64,000 nucleotides of DNA from a virus, in IMG/VR virus record IMGVR_UViG_3300045988_165550, positions 1 through 64,000 of that record. The stretch is one strand, 5' to 3'. The position numbers and the translations under genes were made by a program. Positions 10,298 through 63,897 of the stretch are shown here, one piece after another (within the stretch, counting starts at the first letter, position 1; each line of letters opens with the position of its first letter). The notes under the pieces were generated by a model. The model did no database searches and was not told the DNA's origin. It worked only from the letters and a program-made list of their open reading frames with translations.

Positions 10298-10301
10298 AAA
10301 A

Positions 10302-10342
10302 GCCCCGACCGAAGCCGGGGCAACCGCGAGCCTTCCGGCTCG
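10302..10342 (+). terminator. Two tandem GC hairpins (GCCCCG..CGGGGC; CGAGCC ttcc GGCTCG)
   Basis: Read directly after stop 10297. Weak U-tract. Confidence 0.45.
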
Positions 10343-10544
10343 AATCTACTATAGTAGAAATTTGGCTCTGTAAGAGCGTTTAAATCCACAGACTTTGAAG
10401 AGTCTGACCGTCAACGGAAGCTATATGTTTCTTTTTATTCCATAAAGGTTCGATTGAAATCTTCCGAAGACGGTGCAAATTTAAAAAATAAAATAATACG
10501 GCGTATCAATTTACCTGAAAAATTATAGAATTTTATGTTTTTAA

Positions 10545-10570
10545 AGCCCTACCGCATCACGGATAAGCGG
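10545..10570 (+). promoter_or_regulatory. Conserved hairpin leader, copy 5 (AGCCCTA CCGC ATCACGGATAA GCGG)
   Basis: 7 nt upstream of ATG 10578. Confidence 0.7.
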
Positions 10571-10577
10571 AATAAAG

Positions 10578-10856
10578 ATGTTTAAGATATTGCACGCCTT
10601 CCTTGATTATCCCTTCTGCTCGTTCGAGTTTCTGAATCTCGACACTCAGGATCATATATTTGCTTCATTCTTCGATGATCCTCTCTATGAGCTTCTGAAA
10701 GAGTGCGGGGTGAATTACGACCACGAATTAGAAGGGAAGATAATAGAGAAGATTCCGTCCGATTTGCGCATACATACCAGGGAGTATGCCGTTATCAGGG
10801 CGCAACAATATTTAGACGGTTCTTGGTTCTTTCCCTGGCTAAAGAAGAAAAAGTAA
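10578..10856 (+). CDS. hypothetical small protein
   Basis: 92 aa. Preceded by leader copy 5. Confidence 0.65.
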   Translation: MFKILHAFLDYPFCSFEFLNLDTQDHIFASFFDDPLYELLKECGVNYDHELEGKIIEKIPSDLRIHTREYAVIRAQQYLDGSWFFPWLKKKK

Positions 10857-10867
10857 TATAATCATTC

Positions 10868-10893
10868 AGCCCTACCGCATCACGGCGAAGCGG
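10868..10893 (+). promoter_or_regulatory. Conserved hairpin leader, copy 6 (AGCCCTA CCGC ATCACGGCGAA GCGG)
   Basis: 6 nt upstream of ATG 10900. Confidence 0.7.
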
Positions 10894-10899
10894 ATTTTT

Positions 10900-15831: not shown

Positions 15832-15869
15832 ATTATAGTTGATAGTTTATAGTTTATAGACTATAGGGG
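15832..15869 (+). repeat. Heptamer array (ATTATAG TTGATAG TTTATAG TTTATAG ACTATAG)
   Basis: 7-nt periodicity read directly. Confidence 0.8.
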
Positions 15870-15877
15870 AAATCAGA

Positions 15878-16420
15878 GGGTGCAAACGTACTCTAGACTA
15901 TCGTACTATTGAACGTTTGCACCTTTGTTCTTTTACACTATAGTACATTTCCATCTCTACATTTTGGTACACCCGCACCTTTGTTCTTTAGTACTATAGT
16001 ACATTTCCATCTTTACACTTTTGTACATCTACACCTTTGCCCTTTAGTACTTTTGTACGCTTACACCTTGGTACGAGGTAAACGGTTTCGTAGATATGAT
16101 TTTCAATTTTTGAAGATAAAAACGGGGCTTTCGCACGATTGCACTTTTCGCCTTTCGTACTCTAGTACTATCGCACTATCGTACTATCTAATATCCACAC
16201 CTTAGAACCTTCCGCCATTTGTACTATAGTACTATCGTACTATTTCTATTCTTAATAATTAAATAAGATTAAAATCTTAGAAATATATACGGATTTACTT
16301 GCAGGATTCATTTATTTTTCGTACTTTTGCACCGTAGTACTTTGGTACGATAGAGTATTTGAGCTTAGGTTCATTTGTACTTTAGTACTCGTAGTTTGAA
16401 TTTTATTATTAATACTTTAA
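15878..16420. repeat. GTAC tetramer-box array upstream of parA; candidate centromere/operator
   Basis: I count 21 GTAC between 15888 and 16390. 56-bp tandem units at 15919-15972, 15975-16030 and 16031-16078. Repeated GTACTNTAG(T)ACTATCGTACTAT blocks. Inverted repeat GGTGCAAACG..CGTTTGCACC at 15878-15923. Confidence 0.6.
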
Positions 16421-16432
16421 AATATAAAGATT

Positions 16433-17739: not shown

Positions 17740-17781
17740 GTAAACGAAAAGTCAGATTTGCAGGTAAACGAAAAGTCAGAT
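17714..17781 (+). repeat. Three direct repeats of AGGTAAACGAAAAGTCAGAT (24-bp period)
   Basis: Copies at 17714-17733, 17738-17757 and 17762-17781, overlapping the parG-like stop. Related AGGTAAAA..TTTTACCT palindromes at 17785-17812 and 18092-18120. AGGTAAACG also occurs at 16077. Confidence 0.9.
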
Positions 17782-17837
17782 TGAGGTAAAATCTTACTAA
17801 AGTCTTTTACCTGATTTGGTACCAAAATAGTACCGAA

Positions 17838-18286
17838 GGGTATAGTTTTTGGTACCAAATCACTGCATTTATGGCTAAGTTTGAAGCGTAAAGTATTGAA
17901 TTTCAAGCATTTATATACTGCAAAATGTATCATACTAATGTATTTCTCATTATACCAAATGGTTAAATGATTGATTTCCAAATTATTACGATAAAAACTT
18001 AGCCATAAATGTAGCGACTTTCGGACCAAAAGGTACAAAAGGGTTATAGTTCTTGGTACGCAACAAGTCAATACATTTGTGGCTAAGTTTGAGGTAAAAT
18101 CCTACTAAAGTATTTTACCTTCTTACTAAATCTTTTTACCGAGGGTTATAGTTCTTGGTACAAAGGGTTATAGTTCTTGGTACAAATGGTTATAGTTCTT
18201 GGTACGAAAATACCAAATCTGGAGGGTTATAGTTCTTGGTACAAAGGGTTATAGTTCTTGGTACAAAGGGTTATAGTTCTTGGTAC
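17838..18286. repeat. Iteron-type origin: seven 19-nt iterons GGGTTATAGTTCTTGGTAC plus one degenerate copy, around an A+T-rich tract
   Basis: Iterons at 18041, 18143, 18165, 18187, 18224, 18246 and 18268 (22-bp period within the triplets). Degenerate copy at 17838-17855. A+T-rich 17890-17995 is bracketed by inverted CATTTATGGCTAAGTTT (17866-17883 / 17995-18011). Confidence 0.8.
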
Positions 18287-18410
18287 ATTAAAAATCTCGA
18301 AAGTGTAGTGTTTATCGGGGTTTCCGACGATTTCGGGGTCCCTATACTAATACTAATACTATTTATTATATCCGTATATGAAAGAATGAAAATATATATA
18401 GGTAATAGTT

Positions 18411-22851: not shown

Positions 22852-23537
22852 TAGATGTAACTGTTGATTTAGAAACCTGTTCGCTTTCTCCCACCGCTGC
22901 CGTGATGAGTATCGGCGCGGTGGCGTGGAAGCGCTACGGAAAAGAATCGCCTTTCTTTGATGAAGGCGACGGCGTTTTGAGAAATTCAACTTTCTCTGCA
23001 CATGTGGATTTACGATCCATGTTCCTCAATGGCTTCACCTTCGATCAGAATACGGCAGACTGGTGGGCAAAGCAGAGTGACGAGGCGAAGGCTGCCTTGC
23101 TCGACAACGACAGCGACGAGGAACCTTGCCGGCCGATTGATGTAGTCGTTAACGACCTATTCGGGTGGATAACCTATATCAAGCAGAAACTCGGTGATGA
23201 AGACCTTTGCCTTTGGGCGCAGGGCACCGACTTTGATGTGGCCATCTTGAGATATATCTGCTACAAGCTTGGCATCAAGTTCGAGATAAAGCATACCCAG
23301 TTGAGAGACCATCGCACGTTCTACCTGGAAATGGCAAGAATCTTGTGGGATGCAGCTGGGGTTCATGAGGAACCTTTTACCCTCGACAGGGCTTATGCCT
23401 TGACTACGGACTATAAAGACATCGCCGATGATGAAGGCGCGGCACATGATCCGCTCTTTGATTGCAAGCGCAGTATTTATAGTACTTGGCAGATGATGCA
23501 GAAAATAAGGGAAGCAGCCTATGCCCCGTCTATTTGA
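22848..23537 (+). CDS. DEDDh 3'-5' exonuclease
   Basis: Exo motifs VDLETCS, GTDFDVAIL and AHDPLFDCKRS (H-x4-D). Confidence 0.75.
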   Translation: MIDVTVDLETCSLSPTAAVMSIGAVAWKRYGKESPFFDEGDGVLRNSTFSAHVDLRSMFLNGFTFDQNTADWWAKQSDEAKAALLDNDSDEEPCRPIDVVVNDLFGWITYIKQKLGDEDLCLWAQGTDFDVAILRYICYKLGIKFEIKHTQLRDHRTFYLEMARILWDAAGVHEEPFTLDRAYALTTDYKDIADDEGAAHDPLFDCKRSIYSTWQMMQKIREAAYAPSI

Positions 23538-23937
23538 TTTGCCTTATATCCCTAACCGGAAGGGCATTCAGCAGAAGCACAGAAATCTATCCCGATATAA
23601 GCTGCTGCATCGCTTCGCCTATACCGAGACGATGAGCGGACTGAGGGATGATATTCCGACACTGCTATTCTATGCGCCATTCGCCCTGTTAAAAGATACC
23701 TGCGAGTATCTTTGCAGGATGATGGGGGGCAGCGTGGAAGATATGATCATCACGCCGTCGCATAGTTGCCGCCGAAAGAACGGAAAAATCTATTGGAGGC
23801 AGGAGGTGCAGATTATCGGTCTAGATACCGATTTTCTCACGATGGAAAGTCTATCGCAGATGATAGTACACCGTATGGAAACCATCTGCAACTGCAAAGT
23901 AAGGCGTTATCGCCTGGAAACATTCTTGAATTTATAA
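23521..23937 (+). CDS. hypothetical protein
   Basis: 138-aa ORF, Cys/Arg-rich. Confidence 0.5.
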   Translation: MPRLFDLPYIPNRKGIQQKHRNLSRYKLLHRFAYTETMSGLRDDIPTLLFYAPFALLKDTCEYLCRMMGGSVEDMIITPSHSCRRKNGKIYWRQEVQIIGLDTDFLTMESLSQMIVHRMETICNCKVRRYRLETFLNL

Positions 23938-23964
23938 ACGAAAAGATATGAAGAAATAAAAGAT

Positions 23965-24480
23965 ATTCTGCATGACATCATGCAACTTCGGTACGATATA
24001 CACTTCGTTTCCGATTTTTATTTTGTTAGACAACCGAGCCATCGGTTAAATGGCAGGAAGACCAGACGGGCGATAGGTGGACGCTGAAAAGCTTCACTAA
24101 TAAGTTGATACCCCCCCACCGCAGTCTCGGAACGATAAGTGAAAAGTCTGATTAAAAAGCCTGAGGAATACCTATCGATGCGGTAAGCGGGGCATCCTCG
24201 AAATTTGGCGGTGTCGCCCCGAAGGTCTTCTTTCTTTGACAATATGATATAAAGAGAATAGGGGAGGCAGTCTGGAAACGCTCTTAAGCAGGGGTAGTGG
24301 GAGTCAGTAATGCCCCACGACTATGCTGTACACTGCATCTTTGCAGCGGGCGAGTACCACAGATTTTCAAATGCTCCGACCGCTCGCTCTGGGAAATAAC
24401 CTGGCAAGATGTAAACACTTGAAGTTTGTCCTACCCTCATGCAGCCGTTCCCAGCGATTCCGGCGCTGGCGAGGTCAAGA
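23965..24480 (+). ncRNA. Candidate structured RNA / long structured leader upstream of the primase gene
   Basis: 594-nt gap with no credible ORF. Nested complementary pairs 24057-24063/24224-24230, 24071-24078/24170-24177, 24088-24093/24216-24221, 24118-24122/24180-24184 and 24291-24296/24431-24436. Local hairpins at 23969-23984 and 24333-24346. Ends with CCAGCG hairpin repeat copy 1. Confidence 0.3.
24445..24469 (+). repeat. Hairpin repeat CCGTTCCCAGCGATTCCGGCGCTGG, copy 1
   Basis: Stem CCAGCG/CGCTGG. Family also at 33803, 35499 and 63873. Confidence 0.85.
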
Positions 24481-24531
24481 GTGGTGCCTTCCTTTTCTCT
24501 TTTAACTCTATAATTACTCTTGGTATAAGAT

Positions 24532-27500
24532 ATGTTATTCCACCCTATATTAAACCAGATTGCCAATCTCGACATGGCTTTCCTTGTGAAGCCAGCCGAT
24601 GAGCAGCGCATCGAAGGACAGACGGCTTGTTTCTGTCCCCTCTGCCAGAAGGAAGAGGCAGACGATGGCGAGCAGAGCAAAGCGAAGCAGACACCGCACC
24701 TCATTATCTATAATAATGAGCGTGGTGGTATGTATAATGGTGTAGGGGTGGATAATGATACCAAGGCAGAGCATGGTGCCTTGCGCTGGATGTGTACCAA
24801 GACCGGAAAGTATGGCTACGGTGCAATCGAGCTTTATGCGGCAATGCGCAAGTTGCCAATGCACGGAGCAAGCCTATTGCGTCTTTGCCACGACCTCGTG
24901 GCAAAGGTGTATGGCGACAACGAGAAGACAAGAGCCAAGTGGCCGATGCTCTTTGCCAGGATGGACTACCGTACCATCGCCCCACAAACGATTGAAACGT
25001 TTTCTTTTATTCCAAAAACTGACTTCAATCCCCAGGAGCTTGCAGCCCTTGGGTGCGAAGTTACATCCGTAAAAGGCATTCCGCAATACGGCTTCGGTAA
25101 GGACTTTAATACTACGATGCTAAATGAAGATTTCCGCATATACGCCGTAGATAAAGTAACCCTGCCTAACGTGGTGAGAAACGGACAACTGGTAAGCGAA
25201 ATCATTTACGGCACTCCCTGGAACCCGCTGTTCGTCTGCTTCGCTACAGACGTAATAGCGCCGCAGGGCAGCTGCGGATGCTTCTTTCGTCCAGCCATGC
25301 AGCAAGACCCCATCGTCTTCTCCACCTGCGAGGATCACAGCGTGAGAAAGGTGAGTAAGTGGCTGATGGGTGATAAGGTTTTCACCTATGCGATGGACCA
25401 TCGGAGTAATAACTCTACTGCCGTTCACTCGGCAATAGAAAAGCTGCAACCCGATGAACCTTATACAGAGACTAAGGAGATATGGGTGGAGAATGAAACG
25501 AAGGAAGGAGCGCCGAAAGGTACTTATCATAGTGAAGAGGAACCCATAGAAGTGGGCGACATCAAGGCTCAGAACATCGTGTTCTGTAGAACACCCGAAG
25601 ACGCATTGAGCATTTATTATGCCATGCGTTCCCTGCGTCAGGATAAGGCGCAAGATAAGCATTTTCAGAAATATTGTTGGTATCACGTAGCCTTCTCGCT
25701 AGGCAGAAGAAACTTCTGGTATATCGAGCGTGGGCAGTGGAGGCAGGAAAAACTCGACTTCAATGCTTTGCAGTATCAGAAAATGAAGCGATTTGCCGAA
25801 AGGGTCATCATGATTTACCCTAACGACATTGCCAGCCAAAGGGATTGTGGAGCCATCGCAACTAAGTATTGCGATATTTGTTATGCCACGCTGCCCGATG
25901 GCTTCAGAAGCAGATATAATCAAAGGTGGAACTGGTTGTATGGTTGTTCACCACGAAGCGTGAGAGATTATCTGATGTGCTACCACATGGATGATGCCGA
26001 CAATTTTAAGTTCGACCACGATATAAGGTTGCCGCTATATTCGAGATTGCGGGGAGCCAACAATACGGACCCATTCGAGATAGAATATCCTCGTGATCCG
26101 AGAAGCGGCAAACCTAAACCGCCTACCTGCAAGGTATCGCCTACCAAGGTGTGGCTCTTTATGACCTGTCACGGCTATTACAGAATGATAGACCCTGAGA
26201 GTACCGACCTCGTAGGTCAGTATATCCATCTAGACAGATGCTTTGTTGAGTACATCGACCAGAAGAGTATCATCCAGGCAACAAAGGTTCAACTTCTGCA
26301 GTTCACTGAGCAGAGTTGGCGGTATAATGACAAGGAGCGCAAGATGATGTCAGATTGTGCGAATCTGATAGACAAGAATTTCAGTGAGAAATCGGCTGGA
26401 GGCTTGCAGAGCATGGTGATAGATTTCACTGAAAGTTTCGATGCGCATACGGAGTATTTCTTTTTCCGCAATGTGGCGTTAAAGATTACGCCAGAAACCA
26501 TCATGCCGGTTAGCTATGAAAAGCTGAACTTCTTTATCCCAGCCTTGGCAAAGAAGCCGTACGATTTCACGATGAGGGTATTCAATCCTCCTTTCGTTAT
26601 CAGCGAGAGCCAGGAATATAAGGATAAGGTAGCAGCCATCGCCCAAGATGAAGCGCAGGTTAATGAGGACGGTTCACCTGTCTTTACGAGAGCCGAAATT
26701 GAACAGAAGAAGAAAGACTTGGAGGAATGGTCGCATACCTATCAGTGGCAAGTTGATTGGCGCGGCAAGCAAGAAAAAGAACTTTGGGCACCGCTCCGTG
26801 TTATCAGAGGCTGTTCCAACGTATTGTGGCGAAGAGAACGTGATGCGATTCGTAATAAGGAGCCTCTTACTAAAGAAGAACAGGCTATCATTGATTCTCA
26901 TTTTGCCAACATGATTTCTTGCATCGGAAGAGTGTGCTATCGTTCTTGGGCAGATATGACAACTATATGCCCATATCTTTTGGAAGATGAAGTGAAGGAT
27001 GAAAAGCAGGCAAGTGGTGGTACGGGAAAATCCATGATGATTAATATCCTCGTCAACTCGGCCGTAAATGTACTGCATATAGACCTGAAGAAATACAAGA
27101 CAGAAGATAAAGCGCAGTTTGCGCTTACTGATATTCTGAAGTATCCTGGAAAATATAGGGTAGTGCATTGGGAGGATAAACCATCTAATTTCTCGGTGGA
27201 ATACTTCTATAATATAGTCACATCAGGCTCGCAGGTTGAACGGAAGTTCGGAGATCCAATATCACTGAATCTGGATAACTCTCCTATCAATGTCATATCA
27301 AGTAACTCACAGCTGAATAATGCGGCAGGTTCTACCGCCAGACGTTTTCCGCTGGTATCGTTTTCTGACAGATTTGCAGGAGCCAATCCGATGCTGCATG
27401 AATTGGAACGTTCTCCTAAAGACTTGATGAAAAGTCTTGCAGATTCTCCCGAAAAGATAGCCGAGCGAGACCGCAATCAAATCATTTACATCTGTGCTCT

Positions 27501-28212
27501 TGCCGTGCAGTTCATCATGCGCTATCATACCTTCGCTATCGCTCCTCAGAAGAACGTTCAGCGAAGATTGATGGTAAGGGAAATGACCGAAAATTCGGTG
27601 AACTACTTTGAATGGTTCTTCAGTCGAAACGATGTCTATGGAGTACCTATCTGCGCAGACGACATGTTTAGTGAGTTCATGCGAGATTGGGCTGATGCCT
27701 CTGAGGGCAAGAGCAAGGAATATAGCCGAGCTACCTTCAAGAAGAAAATCAGGAAGTATTGCGAACACATGGGTATTACCTGCAATCCTGATAATCTATT
27801 GGTGGGTGAGGACAACAAGCGTCATGGCTGCTTCAAGCTCCGAGCCTGGATAACGGAGGAATACTTCGTAGGCAGAGAGTGGGAGAATGATGATAGTGTA
27901 GAGCCGAAACTCATCCGCAGGGTGAAGACCAGTAAGCACGTCTATTTCTTCTTCCGTAGTGGTAAGGATCACATTCCGGAAAGCTATGACGAGTTGAAGC
28001 GGATAGCGAAGGAATATGTAGAGGGTCCCGACCCATTACCTTATCGTGATGATGATGGAAATATCGTTTCCCTCACCTCAGAAGAGGAAGAACGCTGGAA
28101 GGCATTCACCTCCCGCAAGCAGGGCAGAAGACAAGCTATCCCGAACGCTAGCGATAGCAGCAATGCTGCTGCTACCGTAGATGAAATAGATAAGAGCAAC
28201 CTGCCATTTTAG
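24532..28212 (+). CDS. primase/helicase-like replication protein (N-terminal Zn-finger region, C-terminal P-loop NTPase)
   Basis: CFCPLCQ...TPHLIIY...WMCTKTGKYGYGAIEL resembles a primase Zn-finger region. Walker A SGGTGKS near residue 830. Ends in ...DKSNLPF. Confidence 0.65.
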   Translation: MLFHPILNQIANLDMAFLVKPADEQRIEGQTACFCPLCQKEEADDGEQSKAKQTPHLIIYNNERGGMYNGVGVDNDTKAEHGALRWMCTKTGKYGYGAIELYAAMRKLPMHGASLLRLCHDLVAKVYGDNEKTRAKWPMLFARMDYRTIAPQTIETFSFIPKTDFNPQELAALGCEVTSVKGIPQYGFGKDFNTTMLNEDFRIYAVDKVTLPNVVRNGQLVSEIIYGTPWNPLFVCFATDVIAPQGSCGCFFRPAMQQDPIVFSTCEDHSVRKVSKWLMGDKVFTYAMDHRSNNSTAVHSAIEKLQPDEPYTETKEIWVENETKEGAPKGTYHSEEEPIEVGDIKAQNIVFCRTPEDALSIYYAMRSLRQDKAQDKHFQKYCWYHVAFSLGRRNFWYIERGQWRQEKLDFNALQYQKMKRFAERVIMIYPNDIASQRDCGAIATKYCDICYATLPDGFRSRYNQRWNWLYGCSPRSVRDYLMCYHMDDADNFKFDHDIRLPLYSRLRGANNTDPFEIEYPRDPRSGKPKPPTCKVSPTKVWLFMTCHGYYRMIDPESTDLVGQYIHLDRCFVEYIDQKSIIQATKVQLLQFTEQSWRYNDKERKMMSDCANLIDKNFSEKSAGGLQSMVIDFTESFDAHTEYFFFRNVALKITPETIMPVSYEKLNFFIPALAKKPYDFTMRVFNPPFVISESQEYKDKVAAIAQDEAQVNEDGSPVFTRAEIEQKKKDLEEWSHTYQWQVDWRGKQEKELWAPLRVIRGCSNVLWRRERDAIRNKEPLTKEEQAIIDSHFANMISCIGRVCYRSWADMTTICPYLLEDEVKDEKQASGGTGKSMMINILVNSAVNVLHIDLKKYKTEDKAQFALTDILKYPGKYRVVHWEDKPSNFSVEYFYNIVTSGSQVERKFGDPISLNLDNSPINVISSNSQLNNAAGSTARRFPLVSFSDRFAGANPMLHELERSPKDLMKSLADSPEKIAERDRNQIIYICALAVQFIMRYHTFAIAPQKNVQRRLMVREMTENSVNYFEWFFSRNDVYGVPICADDMFSEFMRDWADASEGKSKEYSRATFKKKIRKYCEHMGITCNPDNLLVGEDNKRHGCFKLRAWITEEYFVGREWENDDSVEPKLIRRVKTSKHVYFFFRSGKDHIPESYDELKRIAKEYVEGPDPLPYRDDDGNIVSLTSEEEERWKAFTSRKQGRRQAIPNASDSSNAAATVDEIDKSNLPF

Positions 28213-28214
28213 GC

Positions 28215-28246
28215 AATTAATAGTTAAGAGTTAATAGTTAATAGGG
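28215..28246 (+). repeat. Heptamer array (AATTAAT AGTTAAG AGTTAAT AGTTAAT)
   Basis: Read directly. Confidence 0.75.
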
Positions 28247-28302: not shown

Positions 28303-28914
28303 ATGGCTAGTTTTAGTGGAAATGTCGACCTTCTGGCTCTGAATGGAGCCAAGGTCTTAGTTGGTATCGACGAGAAGAATGCAAAGCGTCCTTACGTTTG
28401 CATTCCTCTCGATGTGAACGAAATTAGAGTAGAAGCATCTAAGAATGATGCAAGTAAAACTCAGGCAAAACTGAGAGTCAACATCTGGCCTTTCAATGAG
28501 GCGTATAAGAATAAGATACGCCAGAGTGCAGCCGAGCGTGGCGATACCCAGGTGAGTGTACCTACCCACGAAATGCAGCTCTCGTTCTCCACCGAGTACG
28601 TCAAGGCAGTAGCCAAGGCATTTCCGAAGCTCGTAGAGTCGGTGAAGGAAGCCAACAAGGAACGAGATCCGGAAATCGTAAATCAGGATTTCAACGATGA
28701 GAACTCTCACCTCTTTAAGGCAATCCGCACCCGTATGAACAAGCGAATCGCCAGCCTCTATCAGCCACAGACCGCGACCCAGCAGCAGCCATATCCGCAG
28801 CAAGCCTACGGCGCTGCCGGCAATGCCACCGCCTATGTACCGCCAGCTGAAGGAGGCAATGATTATTCATCAATGCCAGGTTACGACGATCCGAACAGCG
28901 ACCTGCCATTCTAG
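28303..28914 (+). CDS. single-stranded DNA-binding protein-like (non-canonical)
   Basis: Q/P/G/Y-rich linker followed by the acidic tip ...YDDPNSDLPF, resembling the SSB C-terminal DDDIPF. Located between the primase/helicase and the clamp. Confidence 0.55.
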   Translation: MASFSGNVDLLALNGAKVLVGIDEKNAKRPYVCIPLDVNEIRVEASKNDASKTQAKLRVNIWPFNEAYKNKIRQSAAERGDTQVSVPTHEMQLSFSTEYVKAVAKAFPKLVESVKEANKERDPEIVNQDFNDENSHLFKAIRTRMNKRIASLYQPQTATQQQPYPQQAYGAAGNATAYVPPAEGGNDYSSMPGYDDPNSDLPF

Positions 28915-28943
28915 TTAATAGTTAATAGATAATAGTTAATAAT
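28913..28943 (+). repeat. Heptamer array (AGTTAAT AGTTAAT AGATAAT AGTTAAT)
   Basis: Read directly, running up to the clamp ATG. Confidence 0.75.
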
Positions 28944-28946
28944 AAA

Positions 28947-33294: not shown

Positions 33295-34380
33295 ATGAAC
33301 ACAAAACAACAGAATGTTCTTCGCACTCTTTTGAAGAAATATAAATTCAAGAGTGTGAGCAATATAGTCCGCCAGGAACTCGGAATCAATTTCGAGAACT
33401 TCCTACAGAAGACGGAACCCCTCTACGTTATTCCTCGCATCGCTTCCTGCTATGCCGTGGAAGGGGATAAAGAGAAGCTGAACGGTATCATTTACAAGGA
33501 ATGGCTGAAAGATGTGGTAGAAAAAGCCTGGGTAGCTCCTCTTAATGAATACACCGAGGAGTACGGCGAGCGCATCGTTCTCTCTGCCATCTATTACCTT
33601 ATCGACAATGGCTTGTGGGAAACCTACGAAGGTCGCCTAGCCCTGGATGCGCAGGAAGAAAATTACTACGACAAGCTGGAAGATATGCCTTCCGCCATCG
33701 CCATGGTCCAGGAACAGCAGCAAGCCGAGGAGAAGAAAGTTGAGGAGGAGAAAGCCGCAATGCCCCTCACTGGAGCACCTGGCAAAAATCCCCCTCTCGC
33801 TCCCGTTCCCAGCGATTCCATCGCTGGCAAAAAGGAATCCGCCCCAGGCTATACGCTCACCGCCGAAGATGCCGTAGCCCTCATCGGTACCACTTCCGAA
33901 ACCTGCGCTCAGTTGAAGCAGAACATCGAACGCCTGTTTGATTTCATCCGCACCGACAATGATACCGATGTCCTTCGTCAGAAGCTCTCCGACCTGCAGC
34001 GTCAGCTAGAAGCCCAGAAAGCCGAGCACCAAAAAGATATAACCGTCCTTCAGCAGAAAGTCGATGAAGCCAATGCCACTATGCAGAAGGCAAGCAATTA
34101 TATTTCTAAGCTGCGTCAGGAAGCCCAGGAAGTCCAGAAGCAATACGATGAGCTGAATGCCAAATACAAGAAAGCTCTGGATGAGCGTGATGATGCCGAC
34201 AAGGAGTTGGAAACCTGCAAGAAACTTCTCGAAGAGGAAGCCAATCGCGAGCAGCTTCCGAAGAAGAAAATCATCCCATACAGCGTTCTCGATGCCGTTC
34301 CGCTCTTGGGCAAGGGTGTAATGACGGGCTTGGTACCCGTCCTCTCCAAGTACAACATCGTGGTAGATTATAACAAGTAG
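33295..34380 (+). CDS. hypothetical protein with a coiled-coil C-terminal half
   Basis: 361-aa ORF. Contains hairpin repeat copy 2 in a P/A-rich linker. Confidence 0.6.
   Translation: MNTKQQNVLRTLLKKYKFKSVSNIVRQELGINFENFLQKTEPLYVIPRIASCYAVEGDKEKLNGIIYKEWLKDVVEKAWVAPLNEYTEEYGERIVLSAIYYLIDNGLWETYEGRLALDAQEENYYDKLEDMPSAIAMVQEQQQAEEKKVEEEKAAMPLTGAPGKNPPLAPVPSDSIAGKKESAPGYTLTAEDAVALIGTTSETCAQLKQNIERLFDFIRTDNDTDVLRQKLSDLQRQLEAQKAEHQKDITVLQQKVDEANATMQKASNYISKLRQEAQEVQKQYDELNAKYKKALDERDDADKELETCKKLLEEEANREQLPKKKIIPYSVLDAVPLLGKGVMTGLVPVLSKYNIVVDYNK
33803..33827 (+). repeat. Hairpin repeat CCGTTCCCAGCGATTCCATCGCTGG, copy 2 (inside a CDS)
   Basis: Stem CCAGCGA/TCGCTGG. Encodes ...PVPSDSIAG... Confidence 0.85.
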
Positions 34381-35498: not shown

Positions 35499-35523
35499 CC
35501 GTTCCCAGCGATTCTATCGCTGG
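35499..35523 (+). repeat. Hairpin repeat CCGTTCCCAGCGATTCTATCGCTGG, copy 3 (intergenic)
   Basis: Stem CCAGCGA/TCGCTGG. Confidence 0.85.
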
Positions 35524-63872: not shown

Positions 63873-63897
63873 CCGTTCCCAGCGATTCCGTCGCTGG
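63873..63897 (+). repeat. Hairpin repeat CCGTTCCCAGCGATTCCGTCGCTGG, copy 4
   Basis: Stem CCAGCGA/TCGCTGG in a non-coding region. Confidence 0.85.

Follow-up and report, generated by a model that had tools for sequence, protein, structure and literature searches.

What is the role of a 594-nucleotide (nt) intergenic gap that precedes a putative primase/helicase gene in a phage genome? The window considered here is a stretch of 64,000 nt, positions 1 to 64,000 of the IMG/VR virus record IMGVR_UViG_3300045988_165550. Its gap at 23938-24531 extends from the stop codon (23937) of a 138-amino-acid open reading frame (ORF), p138, to the ATG (24532) of a 1226-amino-acid ORF that bears the primase/helicase label. 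A preliminary description of this sequence had pointed to the gap, which is present as given, and had proposed that it represents a folded RNA. The proposal is supported by covariation in both hand-made and unfitted alignments, by an excess of G.U over A.C pairs on the + strand and by the lack of a conserved small ORF. Comparison with related phages further indicates that the gap holds two tandem domains of a new structured-RNA family; neither the two-unit architecture nor the family status was part of the earlier account. The RNA is outside every Rfam 15 family.

Two covarying units

Is there structure in the gap? The minimum free energy of the whole gap gives z-scores of -1.65 (+ strand) and -1.52 (- strand), not beyond chance, and those of segments 24050-24240 and 24240-24480 are -1.42 and +1.0. 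Because thermodynamics alone is unremarkable, the evidence for structure is comparative. Through the primase, 53 related loci were retrieved, and the gap is ~78-97% identical in these relatives (85-97% in many). Clade D is the exception, with conservation limited to blocks; it comprises L028, L029, L032 and L046, to which L092 and L093 were later added. Segment 24056-24231 falls into four sequence clades with one common architecture, made up of the following features, all on the + strand.

24056-24231: unit 1, a multi-helix RNA domain with helices P1 to P5, from the hand-made alignment A2
24056-24063 with 24224-24231: P1, GGAAGACC with GGTCTTCT
24068-24074 with 24213-24219: P2, GGGCGAT with GTCGCCC (clade C, GGGTAAT with ATTACCC)
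24076-24098: P3, a hairpin bulged at one base and capped by a GNRA tetraloop, GAAA at 24086-24089
24118-24123 with 24179-24184: P4, ACCGCA with TGCGGT, the register assigned by hand
24133-24140 with 24170-24177: P5, CGATAAGT with ACCTATCG
24145-24163: a near-invariant 19-mer, AGTCTGATTAAAAAGCCTG, in the P5 loop, from the clade alignment
24228-24237: a pyrimidine- and U-rich run, TTCTTTCTTT, which overlaps the 3' strand of P1 and then extends past it

Alignment A2 holds 41 distinct sequences, with gaps entered as N and the P4 register picked by eye; it omits the interior of P3 in clade D and the P3 of L005. Assigned partners pair in 96.5% of its 1675 cells, as against 84.0% in column shuffles and 35-48% when partners are slid. 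Double-sided, compensatory changes are found in 19 of the 44 pairs, and the covariation score is 0.358 (shuffles 0.152, slid partners at most 0.09). RNAalifold, run on a plain MAFFT alignment, recovers P1 and P2 independently, compensations included.

Several of the complementary words in the preliminary description proved to be parts of these helices. The pair GAAGACC/GGTCTTC is kept among relatives as P1, changing to GAAGAAC/GTTCTTC in clade C. The GAAA mini-stem is the tip of P3, whose loop remains GNRA (GAAA, GCAA, GUAA or GGAA) while 7 of 9 pairs covary. ACCGC and GCGGT do pair, as P4, although in an ordinary nested helix and not in the pseudoknot suggested for them; P4 takes the forms CCGCAGC/GCTGCGG, CCGCAAC/GTTGCGG and TACAGC/GCTGTA in clade B, and ACGG/CCGT in clade D. 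P5 is a perfect CGATAAGT/ACTTATCG in clade C, GGGG/CCCC in clade B and GCAGGA/TCCTGT in clade D. The relatives do not support the previously proposed partner of ACCTATCG, namely CGATAGGT at 24071-78: clade C carries TAATGAGT opposite ACTTATCG there, and it is the 24133-40 strand that matches perfectly. CGGGGC/GCCCCG likewise lacks support: other clades have lost or substituted its 5' half, and GCCCC is part of P2. Nine of the ten words lie where they had been placed, GGGTAG (24292-24297) being off by one, and about one third of the pairings first proposed are wrong.

Does the P5 loop take part in a tertiary contact? GCC 24159-24161 and GGC 24207-24209 may form a 3-bp pseudoknot in the window. 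Two other candidates were rejected. A pseudoknot of GAGGA 24163-67 with TCCTC 24195-99 has its 3' segment deleted in three clade-D sequences, and such purine and pyrimidine runs pair trivially. A local GGCG...CGCC hairpin, which might act as a switch by competing with P2, does not persist in clade C.

The second unit was derived with RNAalifold from an unfitted MAFFT alignment of 35 non-D sequences, and its features are again on the + strand.

24251-24502: unit 2, a branched domain of ~250 nt closed by the long-range helix P6
24251-24269: 5' strand of P6, AAAGAGAA-TA-GGGGAGGCA, with its partner at 24485-24502
24251-58 with 24495-502: P6a
24261-69 with 24485-93: P6b
24279-84 with 24478-83: P6c
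24291-24296 with 24432-24437: P7
24297-24318: H2a, a bulged hairpin with a covarying stem and the conserved loop CAGUAAUG
24319-25 with 24420-26: P8
24334-41 with 24406-13: P9, spanning 24334-24413 and enclosing a variable region, 24342-24405
24421-24431: a junction, GAAGTTTGTCC, directly 5' of the P7 3' strand
24445-24469: the CCGTTCCCAGCGATTCCGGCGCTGG hairpin branch (CCAGCG), a dispersed repeat with four copies

Here 98.6% of cells are paired (42-55% with slid partners), a figure inflated by the prediction of the structure from the same alignment; 10 of the 58 pairs show double changes. More telling than these figures are qualitative features. P6 occurs with fully different sequence at the same place, GACGAATAGACCC/GGGTCTATTTTCGTC in clade D and L141 and AAAGAGAATAGGGGAGGCA/TGCCTTCCTTTTCTCTTT in the others. 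The GGGTAG/CTACCC pair, already noted in the preliminary description, is kept among relatives as P7 and reads GGATAG/CTATCC in L045. The H2a stem varies as GTGGG/CCCAC, GTAGG/CCTAC, GTGTG/CACAC and GGATGG/CGTCC. P9 has both strands changed in L045; its interior is precisely removed in L034, L037, L038 and L051, and a 57-nt hairpin is inserted within it in L002, L005, L025, L033, L035, L045 and others. As P9 is kept in the deletion variants and covaries in L045, this long-range helix takes the place of a local hairpin once drawn at 24333-24346.

The CCAGCG hairpin repeat, reported earlier, is supported, with four exact copies in the window. In L005, L008, L033 and L043 this branch is replaced by a long AT-rich inverted repeat formed of TTAATAG/TAGTTAA heptamers, and in L024 it is deleted. 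The branch coincides with one copy of a 25-nt dispersed element, CCGTTCCCAGCGATTCYNNCGCTGG, which consists of a conserved 5' flank and the hairpin and is located at 24445-24469, 33803-33827, 35499-35523 and 63873-63897, always on the + strand. No shuffle reached four matches to the hairpin pattern, and one copy (33809) is inside a long ORF. It may function as a phage signal for regulation, termination or processing.

Compact relatives and the RNA family

How far does this RNA extend beyond close relatives of the phage? Primase homologues at 67-75% identity keep the gene order, p138 then primase, but the two genes are far closer together. Where 128-184 nt separate them there is a single compact unit of ~125 nt, and where the gap is ~290-317 nt there are two in tandem. 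The compact unit of L137 reads AAAGGACAGCA-U-GGCGAUG-GAGGUAGCG-GCAA-CGCCCUCC-UAUAAGUAAGC... in its 5' half, followed by a hairpin with ...GAGCCUCGGA... in the loop; the 3' half reads ...GAAAAGUUUGGCG-CAUCGCC-UGCUGUCC-UUUU and is followed by ~20 A/U-rich nt and the AUG.

Alignment A3, an unfitted MAFFT alignment of 18 compact units, pairs in 95.1% of cells (shuffles 87.5%, slid partners 27-60%), and double changes are present in 11 of 24 pairs, a level reached by 0 of 500 shuffles. The pair count includes a 3-bp pseudoknot between GCC of the hairpin loop and GGC of GUUUGGC, for which there is one ACC:GGU compensation (L273) and two G.U variants. A subtype, type I, has P1 GGAAAGACC/GGUCUUUC and a loop, AUUAAAAAGCCUCGGA, like that of the window; among 14 compact units of this subtype, 11 of the 26 pairs predicted are compensatory.

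Could these patterns reflect recent common ancestry without function, or a small protein gene that escaped annotation? The folding energies are not significant and many relatives are 85-97% identical, as functionless sequence of recent descent would be. Against this, pairing persists across wholly different sequences (P3, P5 and P6 in clade D, and the compact units), and slid controls fall to 27-60% paired. As for a protein, five small ORFs of the gap were compared across 51 relatives: in all five, starts are lost, early stops occur and indel lengths are not divisible by three; a 60-amino-acid ORF retains its ATG in 9 of 51 sequences. A small protein as the cause of conservation, which the preliminary description had considered, finds no start or frame that is kept, and segment lengths are not multiples of 3. 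Either explanation is hard to credit.

Two models connect the various forms. R1 was built from type II units only, and R2 from type I units only, distant compact ones. R1 finds type I units at E values of 5e-7 to 3e-3, as well as a 60-nt minimal unit in L142 (E 0.015) and a clade-D unit 1 (E 0.024). R2 finds type II at 1e-12 to 7e-9. It also matches window-type unit 1, in L002 at 1.6e-5 (33.9 bits, the top match), L029 at 1e-3, L092 at 2.6e-3 and L034 at 0.013, and in the window itself at 24055-24234, with 17.8 bits and E 0.1 for 270 kb searched; all of these matches are full-length and on the + strand. With each subtype's model finding the other, types I and II are, by these models, one family. 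No further copy was found in the 64-kb window with either model.

Unit 2 is a probable, if unproven, second member of unit 1's family, because the design is shared and the minimal unit of L142 carries the CAGUAAUG loop of unit 2. Common to both are the closing helix, the bulged hairpin and GAAGUUUGKCC directly 5' of the P7 3' strand; this junction (24421-24431) is an instance of the motif GAAAGUUUGGC, which unit 1 and the compact units also have, just ahead of the 3' strand of P2. RNAs of the family range from 60 to ~450 nt. At ~450 nt, with many helices and variable insertions, the phage-borne composite of the window recalls ROOL and GOLLD RNAs. It differs in that the large form is built from two smaller units and is associated with a single gene and not with tRNA clusters, and the ROOL and GOLLD models give no match even at E<=10.

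Has the family been seen before? The whole window gives 0 matches to Rfam 15 at gathering scores; at E<=10 the gap yields only noise, from snoRNA and miRNA models, and at E<=1 four compact-unit loci yield nothing relevant. Searching INPHARED phages with blastn returned no match, and no prior description of the RNA family was found in the searchable literature. Scans restricted to exact words found no family member outside the phage lineage in species-representative genomes or IMG/VR. The invariant 19-mer has 31 matches among species-representative genomes, in unrelated taxa and at about the number estimated for chance, and R1 confirms none. The word AAAGTTTGGCGCANCR has more than 120 mostly chance matches in IMG/VR, of which 69 were screened with R1 and two confirmed, both from known contigs. 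A scan of IMG/VR for the P3 hairpin retrieved, outside the lineage, only the 20-nt hairpin itself, at loci without an Rfam family.

Placement, strand and possible roles

Across ~130 loci, all significant matches (E below ~0.05) map to the sense strand of the interval bounded by a p138 homologue and the primase ATG. In every lineage a distance of 18-32 nt separates the end of the last unit from this ATG, irrespective of RNA length (60, 125, 300 or 450 nt). The corresponding positions in the window are 24502, the end of P6, and 24532, the ATG.

24503-24531, + strand: an A/U-rich spacer of 29 nt that separates the closing helix P6 from the start codon

Loci carry 0, 1 or 2 units, in tandem where there are two; in L294, L266, L279, L280 and L310 a stretch of 9-33 nt separates the end of the p138 homologue from the primase ATG. 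Since the unit begins 10-15 nt past the p138 stop codon in many loci, it lacks space for a promoter of its own. A conserved box, ACAAATGTAAAA, occurs right after the p138 stop, 15-40 nt upstream of many compact units (L264-L339, L137, L139); its reverse complement is TAcaTTTG, the Bacteroidetes -7 promoter consensus, facing leftward. As a per-unit promoter the box is unlikely, being absent in many lineages whose unit starts 10-15 nt past the upstream stop. The gap 23938-24531 has no TAnnTTTG promoter motif.

Among the functions named in the preliminary description, a regulatory leader fits best with an intercistronic, sense-strand element at a fixed short distance from the ATG. The RNA is here read, tentatively and short of calling it probable, as a riboswitch-like, cis-acting intercistronic leader that would gate expression of the primase/helicase-like gene. 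This reading is preferred because of the sense strand, the intercistronic position, the fixed short distance to the AUG, the invariant core, the 0-2 copies and the U-runs. The RNA would be co-transcribed with the flanking genes and would act in cis. Around its conserved core each unit forms a closing helix, P1/P2 or, in unit 2, P6/P7; the core is made up of the GNRA-capped bulged hairpin, the hairpin with the loop AUUAAAAAGCCUSRGRA and the junction GAAAGUUUGGC. The core could be a binding pocket for an effector, which might be a small molecule or a protein of the phage or host (the primase itself is one possibility), and binding of this putative effector would decide whether the closing helix forms. 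Once closed, and lengthened by A-U pairs into the U-run, the helix would be a terminator-like or ribosome-excluding structure; sitting 18-32 nt upstream of the AUG, it would attenuate transcription or block ribosome access to the A/U-rich initiation region. Two units in series would constitute two gates. Of all this, the comparative data show the fold with its conservation, strand, fixed position and copy-number variation; regulation itself, the mode of action and the effector are inferred.

Which features are those of a riboswitch? The fold covaries and is aptamer-like, with conserved unpaired nucleotides in the 19-mer loop and the GAAAGUUUGGC junction, and the leader location is consistent, within a single syntenic lineage. 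Tandem and orphan riboswitches share with it a covarying multi-helix fold, invariant junction or loop nucleotides, a pseudoknot and variable peripheral stems, as well as the position as sense-strand leader of one gene, with 0, 1 or 2 tandem copies and a U-run. Unlike riboswitches, the phage RNA has no recognisable separate expression platform, is intercistronic rather than downstream of a promoter, has been found in one phage lineage only and has no Rfam family. What could serve as a platform is only P1 with the U-run after each unit. A T-run is present at the end of each unit in every lineage inspected by eye, and in every inspected unit it follows the long-range P1 or P6. The lambda nut boxB and HK022 put elements are cis-acting antitermination RNAs of 15-70 nt without a closing helix or pseudoknot. 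They resemble the present RNA in being structured RNA of an early or replication operon, with a GNRA-type hairpin, and in acting on their own transcript, as proposed here; they differ in that nothing here points to downstream terminators being overridden.

A number of points weigh against a regulatory leader of this kind. A conserved alternative pairing, anti-terminator or anti-sequestor, was looked for and none was found. The terminator would be a long-range helix and not a local hairpin; a + strand terminator scan gave no G+C-rich local hairpin with a U-run. The constant gene association could be inherited gene order, since all loci belong to one syntenic phage lineage, and 11 of the 75 loci in the P0099 set have no unit. 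Alignment A2 was fitted by hand, with its P4 register chosen rather than derived, the sequences are closely related, with few independent substitution events, and the pseudoknot is supported by a single compensatory case. Neither unit of the window is recognised by R1, unit 2 is detected by neither model, and unit 1 of the window reaches only E 0.1 with R2. Because R1 misses them, the window's units are linked to the family through R2 and intermediate forms.

Does the RNA instead act in trans, as a stable species processed out of the operon transcript? There are models for this: the P1/P7 c4 antisense RNA is cut from the leader of the operon under its control, and the phi29 pRNA serves a phage machine as RNA cofactor. 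Stable small RNAs typically have paired 5' and 3' ends, as in P1, and a U-run, and the conserved loops are possibly recognition sites. The P3 hairpin, RGGUAGCG-GNAA-CGYC, is the sole part to give an Rfam signal: at E<=10, the top match of one compact unit is c4-2, with 14.7 bits and E 2.1. Members of the c4 clan (Rfam c4, c4-2, c4-a1b1) are likewise phage RNAs of an operon leader with a closing helix around hairpins, and the c4-2 consensus shares the bulged GGUAGCG-GNAA-CGCC hairpin with the compact unit. The score is, however, far under the gathering score of 41 bits, and the match covers one hairpin, with only model positions 14-63 aligned. The units here are larger (125-250 nt), with extra helices and a pseudoknot, and their hosts are probably Bacteroidota, not Proteobacteria. 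RNAduplex, applied to 24 units and the region -25..+35 of the primase start against shuffles, found no consistent pairing with the initiation region (mean z -0.9). Promoter space is absent in many loci, and action in trans leaves the fixed spacing to the AUG unexplained. A trans-acting RNA is judged rather unlikely, though an independent non-coding RNA, as first suggested, retains some probability.

P3-type hairpins are also present in c4-like RNAs of ~80 nt, running from promoter to U-run, in unrelated environmental phages. This c4/c4-2-like element comprises a box resembling a promoter, a GGGAG.../...CTCCC closing helix, two hairpins, the first of them GGGTAGCGGNAACGCCCC, and a T-run, and it was noted at L343, L345, L352, L368, L371, L376, L384, L387-L389, L397, L399, L400, L406, L407, L347, L349, L350 and L365. 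In a scan of 18 loci, no Rfam family was found at gathering score.

Might the units serve the processing or stability of the message? T7 early mRNA has intercistronic RNase III sites. The closing helices here, of 15-20 bp with small internal loops, could likewise be cleaved in the manner of RNase III sites, or could act as 5' stabilisers or insulators, so that the primase mRNA becomes independent of the cistrons upstream. The units do lie between cistrons of a polycistronic + strand operon, and their interiors are variable or dispensable whereas the closing helix and the AUG spacing are retained. Such elements would need neither the invariant 19-mer loop and junction motif nor the GNRA loop and pseudoknot, and the core is more conserved than the stems; this role appears improbable.

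The evidence points to an RNA transcript of the + strand, because G.U pairs outnumber A.C in paired columns by 3-7 fold (138:25 in A2, 35:5 in A3 and 30:9 in A4). GNRA loops are found on the + strand only, and RNA accommodates a pseudoknot and a helix with a span of 250 nt more naturally than single-stranded DNA (ssDNA) does. Motifs of this type are hard to assign to RNA or ssDNA by bioinformatics (PMC5737381). STAXI and similar motifs, which are tandem pseudoknotted units near genes for DNA replication or manipulation, may act as RNA or as ssDNA (PMC2864571, PMC5737381). The present RNA resembles STAXI in its tandem pseudoknotted units beside DNA-handling genes, and it poses the same question of RNA or ssDNA. 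It has no sequence or model similarity to STAXI (no Rfam hit); its units differ from each other and are much larger, and GNRA loops and G.U pairs favour RNA.

Is the gap, then, part of a replication origin, as also suggested in the preliminary description? It adjoins the presumed primase/helicase, clamp and exonuclease genes, and covariation alone cannot separate RNA from ssDNA. It could specify a structured transcript that primes or marks initiation, or a folded ssDNA loading site for the adjacent primase/helicase. Transcripts of the former kind are known from ColE1 RNA II and the T4 oriF and oriG R-loops. Tandem repeats of the sort expected for an origin are present between the units of L141, where GGATTTTCCGAAAGGTT, of 17 nt, occurs in three copies at 1080-1135, in a gap version of 875 nt; they are in no other inspected locus. 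In the window the cumulative GC skew rises monotonically across 1-63 kb with no inflection, 23938-24531 has no iterons or tandem repeats, and the G+C content of the gap is about that of neighbouring stretches, 0.46-0.48. Eleven of the 75 relatives with the same replication genes lack the element, and GNRA tetraloops, frequent G.U pairs, a pseudoknot and a 250-nt helix are RNA-like rather than features of transient ssDNA. An origin function is, on balance, doubtful. Tandem heptamers TTAATAG/TAGTTAA (~4 copies) lie at 28217-28244 and 28912-28945, in two intergenic regions just 3' of the primase gene. From their sequence, these may be iterons or protein-binding sites, and they may offer a better origin candidate than the gap.

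Genome setting and significance

The source genome is that of a tailed phage of ~100 kb, of which the window is a part; related IMG/VR contigs are up to ~110 kb. These contigs come mostly from one IMG dataset, which is taken to be a human-gut collection, and one distant tblastn match is labelled human fecal. The window encodes a tape-measure-like ORF of 2095 amino acids, a DNA polymerase III beta clamp and an exonuclease, and the + strand carries nearly all of its genes. The host is probably a member of the Bacteroidota, because Shine-Dalgarno-like words are scarce (1 of 59 gene starts, background 12%), regions upstream of genes are A-rich (47% A) and the + strand of the window has 44 instances of TAnnTTTG, the Bacteroidetes -7 motif.

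Three features flank or border the units.

23521-23937, + strand: p138, the 138-amino-acid ORF, with no family match; its stop is the 5' edge of the gap
23938-24055, + strand: the 5' part of the gap, kept in sequence, with hairpins at 23969-23984 and 24032-24047 and no covariation support
24532-28212, + strand: the 1226-amino-acid putative primase/helicase ORF

Homologues of p138 are directly 5' of the RNA element in all relatives. The primase/helicase label of the downstream ORF is weakly supported. The ORF scores 21-22 bits against DUF5906, under the 27.6-bit cut-off, and has a tblastn match of 20% identity to a phage gene labelled 'DNA primase/TOPRIM'; no PDB relative was found by sequence. 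The N-terminal 500 residues, with a CxxC motif, have no match.

In the 5' part of the gap, 23948-23967 (ATGAAGAAATAAAAGATATT) and the hairpin-forming 24032-24047 (AACCGAGCCATCGGTT) are near-invariant in all clades, clade D included. The hairpins at 23969-84 and 24032-47, as first proposed, stand as conserved sequence, but the rare changes in 24032-47 lack compensation; the AACCGA...TCGGTT hairpin, AACCGAgccaTCGGTT, is the one at 24032-24047, and not at 24043-24058 as it had been placed. Both 23948-23967 and 24032-24047 show no compensatory changes and may owe their conservation to protein binding or promoter function, not to RNA structure. The gap had also been called large for a tightly packed genome. 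The genome is not tightly packed: 19 gaps among 59 window genes exceed 150 nt, and four others are ~600 nt or longer. These four, of ~600-1070 nt and between + strand genes, are 10298-10899, 15832-16432, 17740-18410 and 891-1957. None has an Rfam match at gathering scores, and some contain TAnnTTTG promoter-like motifs.

What might the RNA mean for these phages? If the favoured reading of a cis-acting leader is extended, the units could be aptamers of a new riboswitch class, or a protein-sensing leader, tying primase/helicase synthesis to a host or phage signal, and two variants in series could then provide a two-input gate on the start of replication; this extension is speculative and its chances are judged low. 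The phage lineage is abundant in human-gut metagenomes, where primase clusters at 90% identity hold up to 2415 member sequences. A covarying, pseudoknotted RNA before a replication-initiation gene would give a new handle on replication timing in gut phages, probably of Bacteroidota. If ligand-sensing, it would add an orphan riboswitch class from a virus; if trans-acting or replisome-associated, it would be a new kind of phage RNA. The family also provides a natural structure-function series, from a 60-nt minimal unit through a 125-nt core to an elaborated 250-nt form.

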